In this document: positions 54,365-63,281 of the stretch, piece by piece
How the letters are laid out: each line of letters opens with the position of its first letter
Position numbering within the stretch: position 1 is the stretch's first letter
Assembly (NCBI GenBank): GCA_963677595.1
Contig: OY782041.1
Coordinates: 3,968,001-4,032,000 of the forward strand
Length of the DNA stretch: 64,000 nt
Direction: 5' to 3'
From: Spirochaetia bacterium
Lineage (GTDB): Bacteria; Spirochaetota; Spirochaetia; CAKZLE01
The notes under the pieces: model-generated
Databases searched by the model: none
What the model was told of the DNA's origin: nothing
The model's input: the letters and a program-made list of their open reading frames with translations, nothing else
Translations under genes and position numbers: made by a program

Positions 54365-54436
54365 CACGTTATTTGGATTAATATCCTTCTGTTTTGACAC
54401 GTTATTTGGATTATTATCCATCTATTTTGACACGTT
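54365..54436. repeat. 33-bp tandem repeat, about 2.2 copies
   Basis: cacgttatttggattaatatccttctgttttga / cacgttatttggattattatccatctattttga / cacgtt. Confidence 0.9.
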
Positions 54437-54438
54437 TT

Positions 54439-55212
54439 TTACTTTAACGCCAATTCCCACAGGACCAGTCCTGTCTCCAGGACCACCGTGAACCCGATCA
54501 GCAGGGCATCCCGCTTCCTGAAACGGATCTCCTTGACATAGGTCCTCTCCGATGCGAAACCGAAAGCCCGGCACTCCAGGGCATCGGCGGTACTCTCCGC
54601 CTTCCGCAAGCCGTTGATGAGGATGGTGAAGATGTAGCGCTGCCACAGGATGATGCGGTGCTTCAGGCTGGTCCCTGCAGCCCGTCCCCTGATGGCATGG
54701 GCTGCCTTGACTGACTCGACTTCCCGCTGGATGAGGGGAAGGAAGCGCAGGGCAAGGAAGACCGTGTAGGCGTAGCGGTAGGGCATGCCGGCCTTTACCA
54801 GGGACTGCATGAGGTCCCGGGTGTCCGTTGTCCAGATGAGGATGAAGCTTGCCAGCACCACCCCGGAGAGGCGGAAGAAGAACACAGGCCCCTGCTGCAG
54901 GCCATAGTCTGAGACCTTCAGGATGCCGAAGGACCAGACGGTCTCGCCCGGGTCGATGAGGAAGTGGAAGATCATGAGCAGGAAGCCCAAGCCGAAGACG
55001 ACCAGGCCGCTCTTCAGGATCTCCACAGGCCGCATCTTTCCCATGAACAGGGCCATCCCCAGGACGAAGAGAAAGACGATCATGCCGGAGAGCGGCTGCT
55101 TGAAGACGAACAGCCCCACGGCGATCAGGAAGACCCAGATGAGCTTCACCAAGGGGTAGACCCGGTTCAGTGAAGATCCCTTGTCCTTGTAACTCAGGTT
55201 ATGCTCAGCCAC
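54439..55212 (-). CDS. ECF transporter transmembrane T component
   Basis: LALRFLP, AIRG and ALECRAF motifs. Confidence 0.9.
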   Translation of the reverse strand: MAEHNLSYKDKGSSLNRVYPLVKLIWVFLIAVGLFVFKQPLSGMIVFLFVLGMALFMGKMRPVEILKSGLVVFGLGFLLMIFHFLIDPGETVWSFGILKVSDYGLQQGPVFFFRLSGVVLASFILIWTTDTRDLMQSLVKAGMPYRYAYTVFLALRFLPLIQREVESVKAAHAIRGRAAGTSLKHRIILWQRYIFTILINGLRKAESTADALECRAFGFASERTYVKEIRFRKRDALLIGFTVVLETGLVLWELALK

Positions 55213-56950
55213 GGGACACCTCCCTTCCCTCGAGCAGCAGGCTCATGAAGGATTCCGTGCTCGGTATATTTCCCTGGCAGGTAACGCCCCCCTCACCCAG
55301 AGCCTTGAGGATCTGGAAGAGCAGCGTTGGCTGCAGGCTTGCTGACCCCAGGATCTCTGCTTTGTCGAAGAGTTCGGTGGGATTACCATCGAAGTGCTTG
55401 AGTCCTTCGCTCATGACCACTACCCGGTCTGCGTATTCCGAGACCAGGCGCATATCGTGGCTGATCATGACCACGGCGATACCCCTGTCCCGGATCCCCT
55501 GCAGCAGATTCATCAGGGTTCGTGTCATCTCCCTATCCTGACCGTAGGTCGGCTCGTCCACGATGAGCACTTTTGGGTTCCCGACCAGCATGGTCGCCAC
55601 ACCCAGACGGCGCTTGTTCCCGGCACTCAAGGTAAAGGGATGCCTCCCCGCTTCCCCTGAGAGCCCCAGCTGTTCGAGCATCTTCTCTCGCTCCCCTGCC
55701 ATGAGCTCCGGATCGTTCATCCCCTTGGACTGGAGGCTGTAGTCTATCTCATCAGCCACAGTGTCGGTGAGGAACTGGTGCTCCGGGTTCTGGAACACCA
55801 GGGAAATATGGTTCGCCAGGTCGGGGACCTTCCATCTGCGGGAATCCTTCCCGAAGAGTTCCAGGGATCCCTCACGGCAGGTGTTCAGGCCGATGAGCAG
55901 TTTCGCCAGGGTACTCTTGCCCGCACCGTTACGTCCTACGATGGCCAGCATCTCCCCGGGATGGACGGCGATATCCACTCCCTTCAGGGCGTAGAGCCCT
56001 GCCCCATAGGAGTAGCGGATCGCTTTCCCGTCTATGAGAGGAGCAGTATCTTTCTGTACGGCAGCTGCCTCATTCCCAGAGAACACCGTCCCATCGGGTA
56101 CGAGGTCCAGGCTGCGAAGCAGCTCCAGTGCTTCGTTCACCCGGATGGGGATCCTCTCCACGGGGAAGCCCTGTCGACGAAGTCCCAGGCCGATCTCCAC
56201 CGTCTCCGGCAGCCAGACGCCCCGCTGTTCAAGGTCGTCGCCATGCTCAGACAGGATCCCGTAGGGCTCCCCGCTGTAGAGCAGCTTCCCCTCATCCAGG
56301 ACAAGGAGCTGGTCTGCCTCTGAGAGGAACTCGTCCAGTTCCCTGGTGACGAGCAGGACCGTCATGCCCTGCTCGCGCAGGGAGAGGATCAGTTCATGCA
56401 CCTGGGAGGTGGAAGCCGGGTCGAGGTTGGCGGTGGGCTCATCGAGGATGATGAGCTTGGGTTCCATGGCCAGGACAGAGGCCAGTCCCAGTTTCTGGAT
56501 CTGCCCGCCCGAGAGGTTCCAGACCAGGTTGTGGCGATAGGTCCCGATACCCGTCAACTCCAGGAGACGTTCCACGTTCTCCCGGATCTTATCCCTGCCC
56601 TGCAGGAGGTTCTCCGGCCCGAACGCGATCTCGTCCTCCACGGTCAGGGTGGCGAACATGGTCTCCGGGTCCTGGAATACCGAACCAACGCTGCAGGAGA
56701 TGTCCTTCATCTCAAGCTCAGCTGTGGATTGTCCTTCCAGGAGGACATCACCTGTCAGCTCGCCTTTCAGCAGATGGGGTATCCTCCCATCCAGGATCCG
56801 GCAAAGCGTAGATTTCCCGCTCCCTCCCGGTCCGACCAGGATGGTGAAGGTCCCCTGCTCCAGGGAGAGGGATATATCCTCCAGTACCGGGTCGTCCTTC
56901 CGGCGGAAGCGATAGCTCAGGTTCTTACATTCAATGAGGGAACGGGACAT
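55205..56950 (-). CDS. ECF transporter fused double ATPase (YkoD-like)
   Basis: GPGGSGKST, FQDPE, LSGGQ, GRNGAGKST, FQNPEHQF and DEPTYGQD motifs. Confidence 0.92.
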   Translation of the reverse strand: MSRSLIECKNLSYRFRRKDDPVLEDISLSLEQGTFTILVGPGGSGKSTLCRILDGRIPHLLKGELTGDVLLEGQSTAELEMKDISCSVGSVFQDPETMFATLTVEDEIAFGPENLLQGRDKIRENVERLLELTGIGTYRHNLVWNLSGGQIQKLGLASVLAMEPKLIILDEPTANLDPASTSQVHELILSLREQGMTVLLVTRELDEFLSEADQLLVLDEGKLLYSGEPYGILSEHGDDLEQRGVWLPETVEIGLGLRRQGFPVERIPIRVNEALELLRSLDLVPDGTVFSGNEAAAVQKDTAPLIDGKAIRYSYGAGLYALKGVDIAVHPGEMLAIVGRNGAGKSTLAKLLIGLNTCREGSLELFGKDSRRWKVPDLANHISLVFQNPEHQFLTDTVADEIDYSLQSKGMNDPELMAGEREKMLEQLGLSGEAGRHPFTLSAGNKRRLGVATMLVGNPKVLIVDEPTYGQDREMTRTLMNLLQGIRDRGIAVVMISHDMRLVSEYADRVVVMSEGLKHFDGNPTELFDKAEILGSASLQPTLLFQILKALGEGGVTCQGNIPSTESFMSLLLEGREVSRG

Positions 56951-56958
56951 AGCTTACC

Positions 56959-57594
56959 CTATTCAGCAGACCGGACAAGCCCGGTCTTCGCAACTTTCGT
57001 TGCAAGGAAATACCCCAGGAGACCTGAGAAGATCGCACCTGAGATCATATTGATGGGTACTGCCATCCAGACGTCCTTTGAGTAAGCCGGGTCCCAGCCA
57101 TAGAAGACGGAACTCCACAGGGTCCCGAACTGGGAAGAGGCAATACCTGCCATGATCGCTGTCACGACGCCAAACCGGCTGTATGCACAGATGAGGATGA
57201 CCGCCTCGATCGCGAGGCCCTGGGAGATACCCCAGCCGAGGGTCCCGATGCCGGCTGCATTGCCGAGCAGGACTTCCGTGGCTGCTTCGATGACACCGAA
57301 GGCCAGTGCGACACCAGGCTTCCTGACAAGGAATACCGCCAGGATGTAGGCCCACATGAACATCCCCTGGATCAATGCCCCGCCAAGAGGCCCGAGTGAG
57401 GTGTTTGCCAGGTACCAGAGGTTCCCGATACCGGTGTTGATAACTCCGGCGATGGCTGCAAGGACAGCGACGACTACCAGGTTCCGCGTGGAGTAGCCTC
57501 CCTGTTCCCGGTCGATCACTTTCTTGTCGGTGAAGCGCGCGATCAGTCCCAGGATGACGACGACCGCTACATTGAATGCAGTGTAGATTCCCAT
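56959..57594 (-). CDS. ECF transporter S component (YkoE-like)
   Basis: LVRKPG.AL, E.LLG and QGLAIE motifs; multi-TM. Confidence 0.8.
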   Translation of the reverse strand: MGIYTAFNVAVVVILGLIARFTDKKVIDREQGGYSTRNLVVVAVLAAIAGVINTGIGNLWYLANTSLGPLGGALIQGMFMWAYILAVFLVRKPGVALAFGVIEAATEVLLGNAAGIGTLGWGISQGLAIEAVILICAYSRFGVVTAIMAGIASSQFGTLWSSVFYGWDPAYSKDVWMAVPINMISGAIFSGLLGYFLATKVAKTGLVRSAE

Positions 57595-57617
57595 ACTATT
57601 TCTCCCTTGTAATAGTT

Positions 57618-58988
57618 TTAAAGGGGCAGACCCAGCAGGGTCAGCTCCTTCTTTACTTCTTCATAGAGCACTTCCCACTCTGGGATGGGGGTAAGCGTCT
57701 CCTGTTCATAGGCATCCTCGAACGGAAGCCCGGGATTCCCCCCTTCCCGCTCGAAGACCTCTTCGTATTTCGGCAGGAGCTCTCCGATGATCCGGTCGGC
57801 CTCCTCCATTGTCATACCCGAGGCTGCAGCGGCATGTCCCACTTCTCCCATGAGGCGAACCTCCAGCCCCGTGCCGTGAGGCAGGCTGCCGTCTGCGGAA
57901 CCGACCCCTTCCAGATGGCCCCCGCTCACCGTGATGGCCAGGGCATTGGCAGCTACTTCGTAGAGGAGTTCCTTCGTCACAGCACCGCTCTTGGGGTAGA
58001 TATCGCAGACGATGTTCGCAGGGGCGTTACGTGCCATGGCCTGGCAGACCAGGCTCTGGAGCCACATGCACCCCCGTGCGGAGGTGGCGACATACCTGAT
58101 ATGGATGGGGTGGCACAGATGGTAATCAGCCAGGCAGACCACGTTGGCAGCCAGGAAGGAGGCGACCTGCACCAGGGCGGCCCCAGGGGCGTCACCGGCA
58201 AGGCCTCCTACCATGACCGTTGCCAGTGAAGCATTAGCCATACCGTAGTAGAGGGAATTTGCCGCCCGTACCAGGTTGCCGTTGTCTATCATGAGTTCAT
58301 TGAAGAGGGCGACGAGGTGTGCATCACAGGGGCGAAGCAACTCTGGATGGGTCGCTGCCAGATCCCCGATCTCAGTGACGCTGCTCTCCGCGGCGAGCAT
58401 GCCCATACCGGGCCTGCCCACCTCTTCACGGACTTCCCTCAGGTAGGTCAGTTCCCTACGGGATGCGATAACTTCCGTCACGGAGGCTGACTCAACCATC
58501 ATCCCGTCCACGTCGATGAGGGAACCGCAGGTGATCAGGTCCACGACCGGTTCCTTGGCCCAGCTCTTCACCGTGTTCTTGAATATCTTCTCAGGAGTGG
58601 GGACCCCGGGGTTCCCGGCCCAGACCGCAGGGGGACGGCTGTCCACTACTGTTCGGGGCACCAGCTCGAACCGGTCGGCCCCTTCCCCAAGGACGATAGC
58701 CCGGTTCATCCGTTCGATCCCCCGGTCGACCTCTTCCTCGGTCAGTCTCAGGACCTTCCCGGTGGAGAGGTTATAGATGCCGATGTCAAGGATCAGCTCC
58801 TTCCCGGCGGTGAAGATCCGGTCCGCCAGGTCCCCGTCATCGGGACAGATTCGGTTCTGATCCCAACGCAACTCATATTTCTCAACCAGGGCACGGACCT
58901 TGTCTATGATGAGGAAGTCCCAGTCTTCCTTCGAGAGACTCTGCCCGTTACCCATCCTGTCCATCAGGGCCAGGAACTGCTTTTCCAT
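57618..58988 (-). CDS. Monomethylamine:corrinoid methyltransferase (MtmB) homolog without pyrrolysine
   Basis: 456 aa; EDWD, DLADRIF.AG, GRPGMG, NELMID, VGGLAG and GTGLEVRLMGEV motifs; C-terminal TP..EW..LY. AGGAG SD. Confidence 0.82.
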   Translation of the reverse strand: MEKQFLALMDRMGNGQSLSKEDWDFLIIDKVRALVEKYELRWDQNRICPDDGDLADRIFTAGKELILDIGIYNLSTGKVLRLTEEEVDRGIERMNRAIVLGEGADRFELVPRTVVDSRPPAVWAGNPGVPTPEKIFKNTVKSWAKEPVVDLITCGSLIDVDGMMVESASVTEVIASRRELTYLREVREEVGRPGMGMLAAESSVTEIGDLAATHPELLRPCDAHLVALFNELMIDNGNLVRAANSLYYGMANASLATVMVGGLAGDAPGAALVQVASFLAANVVCLADYHLCHPIHIRYVATSARGCMWLQSLVCQAMARNAPANIVCDIYPKSGAVTKELLYEVAANALAITVSGGHLEGVGSADGSLPHGTGLEVRLMGEVGHAAAASGMTMEEADRIIGELLPKYEEVFEREGGNPGLPFEDAYEQETLTPIPEWEVLYEEVKKELTLLGLPL

Positions 58989-59365
58989 AGCGATACTCCT
59001 CGACTCGCCGCCGGGGAAGAGTGGTATCATGTTGTTTAGGGGGTATTCCATGCAACAGTGATCCACAACCTGCCAGGCGTGTCTCATACTATTTCAGCAG
59101 TGCGACCCCGGTACCGTGTAGTACGATCAGGCTTCCCGTCCTCAATGTCTGCACATGGAATTTTCATAGGAAGATGACTATCTTGTCATCCTTGGATTAT
59201 TTTATGCAGAGAATCGGAAAAAACGCAAGGGACAGATTGGAGTCTGCCATGCATTTTACCTCTCCATTCGCACTATTCCCGGTGCTGGTCATGCGTTTGT
59301 ACGTATCACACCTCTTGAGTCGCCCCATGCTCTATGCTACATTCACAATCAGTATGGCAGATGGT

Positions 59366-60824: not shown

Positions 60825-63281
60825 TTACCGGTAATCAGGCAGGATATACCCATGCTTCTTGAGCAGGTTCCTGACCGTTGAATACCGGCTCGTCGCGATG
60901 AAGACCCGGTCTCCCTCTGCGATCCTCACATGCTCCCCGAGCTTCCCGTCTTCTGCTATGACCTGACGCACCTTCTCATCAACGATCAGCGAGATATAGG
61001 GCTGGTACTCGATCTCGAGGACCTGGTTCTTATCGAGGATCTCGGCGAAGAAGGACTGCCAGATCGGGGGAAGCCCCTGCGCCCCGAAGAGCCCGATGAA
61101 GCTGTTCACCTTGTCGTTAAGCTCCTCGGGGGTACTGCAGTCCTTGGTGAAACTCTTCGCATCGATGACATAGAAGATCTCCCCGACTCTCTTCCCTACC
61201 TTCTCCAGGAAGATCTTCCTGATGGGGTCCTCTCCCTTGAGGGTGACCAGGAGCATATGCTCATCGAGCAGGCTGAGTGTGTCATCCTCCTGGACCTCCT
61301 CCTCATACTCATCACTCAGCCCCAGGACCTTGAGCCCGAGACTTGTGAGCCTGAAGCCGGAGATACCGTCAAAACCAGTCAGGTAGTACTTGTTCTTGAG
61401 ATGGTACTCGTTCTCAGTGAACGTAAAGCAGAGATCGAGGATCCCGATGGTATTGAGCAGGAAGAGCACCATCTCCACAAACGGTTTCTGGACTACCTGC
61501 CGATAGTTCGACGTCGTCACGACGAGCTTTCCCCGGTGGTAGGAATCGCTCGAGGGGCCCTCTCCCGAGCAGAAGAGCTCCCGCCATAAGAGGGGACCAT
61601 AATAGGGGGTCCCCAGGAGGTCTACCGATACCAGGTGGGAGATCATCTCTTCGACGCTGTACCACCGTCCCTCCTTCATCCGGGAGATGAGGATGGCGAT
61701 CCCGCATGCCGGATTCAGGAATCCATGGTAATCGAAGTCTCGTTCCGGGATCATATTGAGGTGCGGAAGCAGTGACTCGATCTCAGCCGCCTCGGGGATA
61801 TAGGGGGAACATATCTTGCGGTAGAGTTCCTCTATAAGCTCAAGTCCCTGGGAAGCTTCCGGGTGGATGAGCTCGAGCATCTTGAGTACCAGTTCTGTCC
61901 GCAGGTGATCAAGTTTGCTGTCCGACCCGAAAGGTTCCGGGATCGACCCGACCTGCCGGAACTCCTTAAGGGTGGACTTGAGGACATTCTTCCCGCTCTT
62001 CGAGTATTTCACCCCAACCGACTGGTGATACCCCACCAGCAGGCTGTGGACCTGCATATAGGATTCGAAGCCTTCGACCACGATATCGGAGGCCGGTTGG
62101 TCTGAGCTGCTCAAGGGGCGCAGCGTATCATCGGCAAAACTCCTCCTGAGTATCGGGACGAGACTTGAAGGATAGGAGCAGGTCTCATTATCAGTGGTAT
62201 CCCAATAATAGGAGCTATAGTAGACCAGGAGGGGGAAATGTTTCTTCATGAACAATTGCCTCTGGTATGTGTCCTTCGGCATCCTGGCGTTCTTGACGGA
62301 GAGATCCCTCACAAACCCATGGCCGCTCCCGATGAGGAGTTCAGGCAGCATCTTCTGCAATGCTGGGGGCAGTTTCGGTACTGCAGCCTTGAAGAGTGCC
62401 GGGATGGTGAATACATAGCCGAGGACCTGGCAGAGATCATTCTTCGCCGTCATGGACCCTCCACGCAGCAAGGGGGTGAGATACCGATTCACCTCACCCT
62501 TGATCGGGTTCGCATAGCGCATATAGATCCTCTTGATATCCTCAGACCTATACTGGCTATCAAGCTTCCGTGCCAGCATCTGAGCCTGGATATCAAAGAA
62601 GAGTTCGAGGTCACTCCTGTCCTCTCCCATATGTGTCAGTGCATGATCGACCCAGTCGATCAGCTCAAAGGGGGTGTAGCGGGAGATCAGGACCCCGTCT
62701 ATGTCACGTGCGAAGGTCGAGACATAGTCAGCCCCGACATGCTCCCTCACGGCCTCCACGACGAGCCGGGTCTCCGGCGATTGGGGGGCACAGCTCAAGA
62801 GGACAAGCAGGGCATACCGGGAGAACTGGATAGGGTCATATCTCGTCATATCTGCAGCTATCTCCCCTATCATGGAGATCAGGACCGCTGCTGCCTCTTT
62901 CCGGAATTGCAGGAGGAGTTTCATACTGAGATAGATGAGCTGCCTCTTCAGCGGGTGGGAAAGCCGCTCTGCGAGCTGCCGGCCTATGGTTCCCAGCACG
63001 GGAACCAACTCATCCGGCGGGATCCTTTCGATAAGCTGCTGGTTCAGGAGCATCCCGTACCGCAGTTCGACTGGTTGGGATGCCGTGAAACGGCTTGCTA
63101 ACTTATTGCCGGAGATCTCCTCCCTGAGGATCTGGGTCCCCTCGCTTCCCAGCATGCGGTTGAGGCATCGGATGCAGATATGCTTACCATTCTGGGACAG
63201 CAGGACCCGGTAGGATCCCTGACCGCAGTACGAGCAGGTCGCAGGGTGTGTAGTTTTCTTCCATTCCCGTATCGTGATCAT
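60825..63281 (-). CDS. Large hypothetical protein with N-terminal Cys4 zinc-finger-like motif and C-terminal helicase-associated-like region
   Basis: CSYC..CIRC near the N-terminus; 4-bp overlap with the SNF2 gene; 818-aa uninterrupted ORF. Confidence 0.7.
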   Translation of the reverse strand: MITIREWKKTTHPATCSYCGQGSYRVLLSQNGKHICIRCLNRMLGSEGTQILREEISGNKLASRFTASQPVELRYGMLLNQQLIERIPPDELVPVLGTIGRQLAERLSHPLKRQLIYLSMKLLLQFRKEAAAVLISMIGEIAADMTRYDPIQFSRYALLVLLSCAPQSPETRLVVEAVREHVGADYVSTFARDIDGVLISRYTPFELIDWVDHALTHMGEDRSDLELFFDIQAQMLARKLDSQYRSEDIKRIYMRYANPIKGEVNRYLTPLLRGGSMTAKNDLCQVLGYVFTIPALFKAAVPKLPPALQKMLPELLIGSGHGFVRDLSVKNARMPKDTYQRQLFMKKHFPLLVYYSSYYWDTTDNETCSYPSSLVPILRRSFADDTLRPLSSSDQPASDIVVEGFESYMQVHSLLVGYHQSVGVKYSKSGKNVLKSTLKEFRQVGSIPEPFGSDSKLDHLRTELVLKMLELIHPEASQGLELIEELYRKICSPYIPEAAEIESLLPHLNMIPERDFDYHGFLNPACGIAILISRMKEGRWYSVEEMISHLVSVDLLGTPYYGPLLWRELFCSGEGPSSDSYHRGKLVVTTSNYRQVVQKPFVEMVLFLLNTIGILDLCFTFTENEYHLKNKYYLTGFDGISGFRLTSLGLKVLGLSDEYEEEVQEDDTLSLLDEHMLLVTLKGEDPIRKIFLEKVGKRVGEIFYVIDAKSFTKDCSTPEELNDKVNSFIGLFGAQGLPPIWQSFFAEILDKNQVLEIEYQPYISLIVDEKVRQVIAEDGKLGEHVRIAEGDRVFIATSRYSTVRNLLKKHGYILPDYR

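Follow-up and report, generated by a model that had tools for sequence, protein, structure and literature searches.

The window analysed here, a 64,000-nucleotide stretch of the genome of a Spirochaetia bacterium (GenBank assembly GCA_963677595.1, contig OY782041.1, positions 3,968,001 to 4,032,000), carries a four-gene operon on its reverse strand (54439-58988). In this operon, a pyrrolysine-free homologue of the methyltransferase MtmB is followed by the S component, the duplicated ATPase (AA) and the T component of an energy-coupling factor (ECF) importer. Judging from sequence comparisons, we hold it slightly more probable than the contrary that the operon serves the corrinoid-dependent N-demethylation of an imported methylated adenine, for the salvage of both the purine and the methyl group.

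The methyltransferase and its pocket

A first-pass annotation of the sequence had proposed an MtmB homologue with leucine at the pyrrolysine (Pyl) site, and both points hold. The 456-residue protein matches PF05369 over residues 8-454 with 318 bits against a cut-off of 25. The best Foldseek matches of its AlphaFold model (pLDDT 89.4) are the structures of MtmB from Methanosarcina barkeri (1TV2, 1L2Q and 1NTH), which align over the full length with a TM score of 0.94, an rmsd of 1.9 Å and 30% identity. The reading frame runs from the ATG at 58988 to the stop at 57618 with no internal stop, and hence no in-frame TAG. The CTC codon (58397-58395) encodes Leu198, which aligns with Pyl202 of M. barkeri MtmB (X in 1l2q, K in 1tv2; E 9e-59). 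Leu198 is invariant in 121 of 121 aligned proteins (the first 121, with identity of at least 59%), so that it is a trait of the clade and not a recent loss of Pyl. The closest relatives are found in Spirochaetaceae (90%) and Oceanispirochaeta (72-73%); Oceanispirochaeta crateris is a source of matches both to mtmB and to the S component. The clade is tight: in a profile search the score drops from 755 bits for its own full-length representative to 476 for the next of full length, and the same profile gives 257 matches at E<=1e-30 among 1.84 billion 50%-cluster representatives.

We compared the pocket of the clade with that of M. barkeri MtmB. The residues that would line it, as read from the strand pattern of the model, are W123, N126, C154, L198, E201, L225, N252, S254, H293, D329, Y331 and E360. 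The GRPGMG motif and the equivalents of Glu205 and Tyr335 are retained. Glu229 is replaced by Leu225, Glu259 by a non-acidic residue, Gln333 by Asp329 and Ser365 by Glu360, and H293 and W123 are further differences. Thus, the features of a true MtmB are missing: the amber codon with Pyl202 is gone, and so are Glu229 and Glu259, which we take to be the residues serving methylamine catalysis. Among 128 full-length representatives of 50% clusters, the combination of H293, D329 and E360 is seen in one, which is that of the clade itself. The clade protein also differs from M. barkeri MtmB in being bacterial and in being tied to an importer instead of mtmC.

The first-pass annotation knew of no characterised MtmB member without Pyl, which MtqB of Methanococcoides methylutens Q3c now contradicts. 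This enzyme, described in 2026, methylates cob(I)alamin with tetramethylammonium, choline and methylamine at 37, 42 and 11 nmol/min/mg, respectively; its authors present it as the first such member with demonstrated function and regard the other non-Pyl clades as being of unknown function (PMC13044021). MtqB shows that the family works without Pyl; however, set beside the clade by its published description, it is an archaeal tetramethylammonium/choline enzyme with a cognate MtqC and a pocket of Met, Cys and aromatic residues. The non-Pyl MttB enzymes (MtgB, MtcB and MtyB), as far as they are described, likewise transfer methyl from cationic N-methyl groups to corrinoid without Pyl, but belong to another family (11-13% identity and TM about 0.5 to the clade protein) and act on quaternary amines. 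As a separate observation, 15 of 17 genomes of one Spirochaetota family (f19, e.g. L190-L192) carry one to four other non-Pyl MtmB paralogues at 28-35% identity, some of them in tandem and some next to genes for MttB, for corrinoid proteins and for SSS permeases.

Importers and neighbours of the clade

Neighbourhoods were compared over 99 loci (L001-L018 and L071-L151), which form 65 non-redundant clusters at 90%. The importer adjacent to clade mtmB is an ECF system directly behind it in 12 clusters, an ABC importer of the PnrA/BMP type in 12 (including L088, where the ATPase alone is present on the contig) and a 517-residue permease in eight. The three types interleave on the clade tree, in which L094 is represented by L093 and L087 by L098 and which covers sequences of at least 340 residues. 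The two BMP proteins examined have as best PDB matches 3s99, in which adenine is modelled, and AtzT, for which dissociation constants of 0.11 µM for guanine, 2.5 µM for adenine and at least 620 µM for pyrimidines are reported (PMC6834077). The 517-residue permease resembles AzgA and xanthine-uracil permeases, which we take as a lead only; its family (L004, L079, L151) has no Pfam, NCBIfam or PDB match.

An adenine deaminase gene lies within 6.5 kb of mtmB in eight of the 65 clusters, against 0.1-0.3 expected from one or two copies per genome. The linked deaminases fall into five lineages, with 31-43% identity to one another, roughly the distance that separates them from an unlinked copy (34-52%). 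Six of the eight pass the TIGR01178 cut-off; that of L136 lies narrowly below it, and that of L078 has an internal deletion. Since AdeC of Escherichia coli is reported to be inactive on N6-methyladenine (PMC13296781), the linked deaminases, if alike, would act on the demethylated product. In four of 37 loci scanned (L086:3117-3219, L084, L087 and L088), a purine riboswitch stands behind mtmB and ahead of the ABC and adeC genes. These riboswitches appear by eye to be of the guanine type, the L086 copy having an apparent C74 and a G for A at position 73. The clade pocket, apart from E201Q, is common to the ECF-, BMP- and permease-linked members and thus may bridge the purine-linked loci to the ECF-type operon. 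In four inspected loci of other MtmB clades, the neighbours are SSS permeases, MttB, or MtrH with a different ECF system, and no adeC is present.

In the window, 23 bp separate mtmB from the S gene and 8 bp the S gene from the ATPase gene, and the T gene overlaps the ATPase stop; the S, AA and T genes therefore follow directly, as first annotated. With S, T and two ATPase domains in a single operon, the importer belongs to group I of the ECF systems. It had also been called YkoEDC-like. The gene order, PF09819 and the S component's sole PDB match, YkoE of Bacillus subtilis (5EDL; E 1e-15), bear this out, whereas the ligand contacts agree in part. YkoE is described as binding the thiamine pyrimidine via W49, E77 and Q95 and the thiazole via Y46 and D131 (PMC5037267). 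In 18 of 18 aligned S proteins, the pyrimidine-contact positions hold Phe (for W49), Glu and Gln; the thiazole contacts are lost in the 18, with Gln for Y46 and Ser or Thr, not Asp, at D131. Adenine offers the same amidine edge as the thiamine aminopyrimidine and may by analogy fit the Glu/Gln pair. Many members also differ from YkoE by an extra N-terminal segment. YkoE thiamine transporters are under the control of thiamine pyrophosphate (TPP) riboswitches; no TPP riboswitch matches in the window or in the 37 loci scanned.

The first-pass annotation had staked its reading on the linkage recurring in other genomes, and it does. Within one spirochaete order, 12 of 38 genomes carry the clade, the S gene lies directly behind mtmB in 10 of these 12, and it is absent from all 26 non-carriers. 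Across 301 genomes of the class of Anaerolineae genome G408, S matches above 50% identity occur in two, both behind clade mtmB, and the 24 genomes with only distant YkoE-like matches lack clade mtmB. All 12 S matches in the surveyed genomes (10 in the 38 and two in the 301) thus stand directly behind clade mtmB, and the identity of the S proteins to the remaining 25 YkoE-like matches in the 301 genomes does not exceed 35%. The S component is a dedicated subfamily tied to clade mtmB.

Corrinoid partners, proposed reaction and alternatives

Among the flanking genes, inspected with Pfam and NCBIfam profiles (GNAT, AEC-type transporter and MntP genes), there is no corrinoid protein, activase or MtaA gene, in agreement with the first reading of the locus. 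That reading went on to suggest unusual chemistry, for which we see no need: a corrinoid protein and an activase are present in two ECF-type orthologue operons, and both are encoded elsewhere in the source genome. Ordinary corrinoid chemistry with partners supplied in trans is therefore the simpler assumption. In the Anaerolineae-class genome G697, one operon holds GntR, RACo, corrinoid protein, mtmB, S and AA genes; in G446, of the same class, the order is corrinoid protein, mtmB, S, AA, T, RACo, homocysteine (Hcy) methyltransferase (PF02574) and URO-D. A search of the source genome located two stand-alone corrinoid proteins and two RACo activases, none beside the operon, together with MetH and 23 URO-D matches. 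The corrinoid protein at G000:417521-418213, beside a second mtmB, is the source genome's best match (42-45%) to the cognate ones of G697 and G446. RACo and B12-binding genes occur in five of five other carrier genomes and RACo in 53 of 200 genomes of the phylum, kin among them not being independent. Corrinoid partners are thus likely, on sequence grounds, to act in trans in the source genome. MttB and a stand-alone pterin-binding methyltransferase were not found in this genome (95.4% complete; MtrH-type proteins and pyl genes lay outside the search), and a tetrahydrofolate acceptor route is therefore not evident.

The source genome has 23 URO-D/MtaA-like genes against only two stand-alone corrinoid proteins, and two of its gene clusters deserve description. 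At C1:411638-426411, a second non-Pyl MtmB, 28% identical to the 456-residue protein and with a different pocket, lies in a complete cluster with a BMP ABC importer, RACo, a corrinoid protein, DUF1638, xanthine-dehydrogenase-like FAD and Mo subunits and a URO-D methyltransferase. From its gene content, this cluster is a candidate pathway for oxygen-free methylxanthine demethylation; the position of the paralogue among BMP importer and xanthine-dehydrogenase-like genes speaks for a purine substrate. At C1:294967-304952, RACo, a PocR-like regulator, a corrinoid protein, a URO-D methyltransferase and a CobW-like gene run divergently from hydantoinase-, nucleoside hydrolase- and cytidine deaminase-like genes (assigned partly by eye).

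In the proposed reaction, the ECF system would take up an N-methylated adenine-type base or its nucleoside, which W123/Y331 and H293/D329/E360 would hold in the pocket without need of Pyl. Co(I) would then attack the N-methyl group by an SN2 mechanism, most plausibly that of a ring-N-methylated adenine able to carry a positive charge. Pyrrolysine activates neutral amines, and the non-Pyl relatives described, MtgB-type enzymes and MtqB, act on cationic N-methyl groups. Because a protonatable ring-N-methylated adenine leaves as neutral adenine, 1-methyladenine (or its nucleoside) is our first guess, followed by the 3- and 7-methyl isomers; N6-methyladenine would react less easily. The methyl acceptor would be the corrinoid protein G000:417521-418213 or that at 301916-302554, kept reduced by RACo activase, and the methyl group would pass on to homocysteine or another thiol via URO-D/MtaA-like or Hcy methyltransferases. 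The freed adenine would enter salvage through adenine deaminase, and a candidate leader RNA ahead of mtmB may regulate translation in response to a related ligand.

Ndm N-demethylases are oxygen-dependent. Together with Add and the N6-methyladenine deaminases Bh0637/YerA, which free methylamine by hydrolysis, they likewise return methylated purines to metabolism (PMC13296781), but none of these known routes captures the methyl group on cobalamin. No cobalamin-dependent purine or caffeine demethylase was found described in the open-access literature. The mlp gene cluster, considered as a related system, is unrelated as far as its description goes (PMC10418091).

Several observations weigh against a methylated adenine as the substrate and against corrinoid partners. 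Corrinoid or RACo genes are adjacent to mtmB in only two of the 65 clusters (L016 and L140), and 33 of the 65 have no adjacent importer (23 of 65 loci being cut near mtmB). No adenine deaminase is present in the fetched stretches of the 14 ECF-type loci (12 clusters, G697 and G446), and the adeC gene of the source genome lies 72 kb away from the operon, beside an AzgA-type permease. The four loci with a purine riboswitch fall into a single branch, and the riboswitches, standing behind mtmB, do not control it. The pocket is not uniform: the full set of 11 core residues is present in only 30 of 67 sequences, the usual departure being E201Q. Finally, the ECF clusters L101 and L116 follow PsuG, PfkB, SIS and BtpA genes, the nucleoside phosphorylases of L125 and L127, two of five clusters with such genes, score best as uridine phosphorylase, and a creatininase-family gene and MnmA each occur in four related loci; these neighbours point to pyrimidines or other N-methyl amidines. 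Among the other phosphorylases, that of L108 scores best as DeoD and those of L112 reach no type at the threshold used. We gave no further weight to the MnmA and creatininase genes, whose synteny is limited to a single branch of the tree.

The same corrinoid chemistry could act on a methylated pyrimidine nucleoside (3-methyluridine, 3-methylcytidine or N-methylpseudouridine) or on any 2'-O-methyl nucleoside, which we consider unlikely. The PsuG, PfkB, SIS and BtpA genes directly upstream of mtmB in L101 and L116, the MtnA-like and class II aldolase genes of L116 and the uridine-phosphorylase-like genes would fit such a substrate, the E77/Q95 pair of YkoE could read cytosine too, and a 2'-O-methyl group would account for purine and pyrimidine neighbours jointly. 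However, the PsuG island is one tree branch, whereas adenine deaminase was recruited five times, and the cargo of AzgA-like permeases and of AtzT-like binding proteins is free purine bases rather than nucleosides or pyrimidines. The island itself (L116:2765-16407) comprises MtnA-like, PRAI-like, PsuG, PfkB, SIS, BtpA, mtmB-ECF and class II aldolase genes; its content makes catabolism of modified nucleoside sugars possible. The first-pass annotation had instead inferred the import of an unknown methylated micronutrient such as a vitamin precursor. Uptake and demethylation of a small methylated compound is supported, but salvage of a thiamine or hydroxymethylpyrimidine derivative now seems very improbable. 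Although no relative of the S component other than YkoE has a solved structure and the pyrimidine-binding Glu and Gln of YkoE are kept, the loss of the Y46 and D131 contacts, the missing TPP riboswitch, the low identity to other YkoE-like proteins and the lack of any thiamine gene among the clustered or Pfam-scanned neighbours argue against it, and the orthologues point to purine bases.

Equally doubtful as substrates are a quaternary amine and methylamine, the latter set free by a deaminase acting on N6-methyladenine. MtqB sets the precedent, with only weak use of methylamine (PMC13044021), and some AdeC-family enzymes are reported to free methylamine from N6-methyladenine (PMC13296781). Against this stand the replacement of Glu229 and Glu259, whose catalytic role we presume, the mostly canonical TIGR01178 nature of the linked deaminases with their HxH/DPHE/DD motifs, and the absence of BCCT or ProU-type importers among the recurrent neighbours. 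Creatinine or another N-methyl cyclic amidine, suggested by the creatininase-family gene beside mtmB in L099, L111, L121 and L128 and by the hydantoinase-like gene (read by eye) adjoining the source genome's second corrinoid cluster, appears a shade more remote still: the creatininase match reaches 111 bits against a cut-off of 235, is confined to one branch and leaves adeC and the purine importers unexplained. Demethylation of a methylated adenine is the reading that we favour.

The candidate leader RNA, further features and implications

The leader ahead of mtmB (59165-59045) is conserved in seven spirochaete-type loci, and the DNA further upstream is not. In eight sequences, 95.8% of the cells of the proposed structure are paired and five of 15 pairs have changed on both sides, whereas slid controls reach at most 49% paired. 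RNAalifold recovers P1 and P3 unaided but pairs the invariant core otherwise than in the proposed P2, a pairing that never varies and that we regard as unsupported. A model of the leader finds it in 12 of the 38 genomes of the spirochaete order, the same 12 that carry clade mtmB, with one copy per genome about 150-200 nt ahead of mtmB in 12 of 12. Five of these matches equal or lie near the training loci and seven are new. Nine matches when aligned are 96.3% paired, in an alignment fitted to the structure and with relatedness inflating the shuffle test. All 14 leaders examined could form an outer helix of 6-13 bp, and in 13 of their 14 minimum free energy (MFE) folds, computed without a control, most of the Shine-Dalgarno region is paired. 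Folding the 186-nt leader as a single sequence brings no gain over shuffled sequences (z -0.32), so that support for the leader is comparative only.

Against Rfam, no family matches the leader at E<=5-10, chance matches aside. The model has no match in 79 further loci, nor in G405, G410 or G697, and the leader was not found outside spirochaetes. In 200 genomes of the phylum the core pattern occurs twice more, each time apparently within a reading frame, and in viral contigs it does not occur. The leader is a candidate riboswitch. We found no report of such a leader or riboswitch before mtmB in the open-access literature. A variant with different stem sequences, seen by eye at L114:6715-6790 and missed by the model, precedes an mtmB without ECF genes.

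Features of the operon and its leader in the window
Feature	Position	Strand	Evidence
Non-pyrrolysine MtmB-family methyltransferase, 456 aa	57618..58988	-	ORF, PF05369, AlphaFold model, Foldseek
CTC = Leu198, site of Pyl202	58395..58397	-	Codon reading and alignment to M. barkeri MtmB
ECF S component, YkoE-like, dedicated subfamily	56959..57594	-	PF09819, 88 bits; YkoE alignment
ECF duplicated ATPase (AA), 581 aa	55205..56950	-	TIGR04520/04521 above cut-off
ECF T component (CbiQ family), 257 aa	54439..55212	-	PF02361
Conserved 5' leader, candidate cis-regulatory RNA (riboswitch-like)	59045..59165	-	Outer helix P0 round covarying stem P1, invariant core GAGGACGGGAAGCCUG, variable hairpin P3
Predicted hairpin pairing with the mtmB Shine-Dalgarno region	58995..59028	-	MFE fold alone, without shuffle control

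Promoter-like sites (three, 2.1 expected) and terminator-like sites (six, 2.7 expected) were not used as support. A 33-bp tandem repeat of 2.3 copies with 90% matches lies directly behind the T gene (54365-54440), and an 818-residue protein without a Pfam match is encoded at 60825-63281 on the reverse strand, behind an SNF2-type helicase gene.

The MtmB family comprises at least 257 clusters at 50% identity. Besides the enzyme, the operon has an ECF S component whose ligand is probably new and an uncatalogued candidate leader RNA, for which a ligand may be guessed from the same chemistry. That it combines the first cobalamin-dependent nucleobase N-demethylase, the first ECF importer for a modified purine and a new class of riboswitch that responds to this purine is a tentative proposal that we would sooner doubt than expect. 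If true, that proposal would mean that spirochaetes, Anaerolineae and gut Lachnospiraceae regain adenine and methyl groups alike, without oxygen, from the methylated adenines of RNA and DNA turnover. Should the substrate be a purine base, corrinoid methyl transfer would reach beyond amines and methoxy groups to nucleobases, and modified adenines would have a fate in anaerobes, Blautia and Robinsoniella among them.

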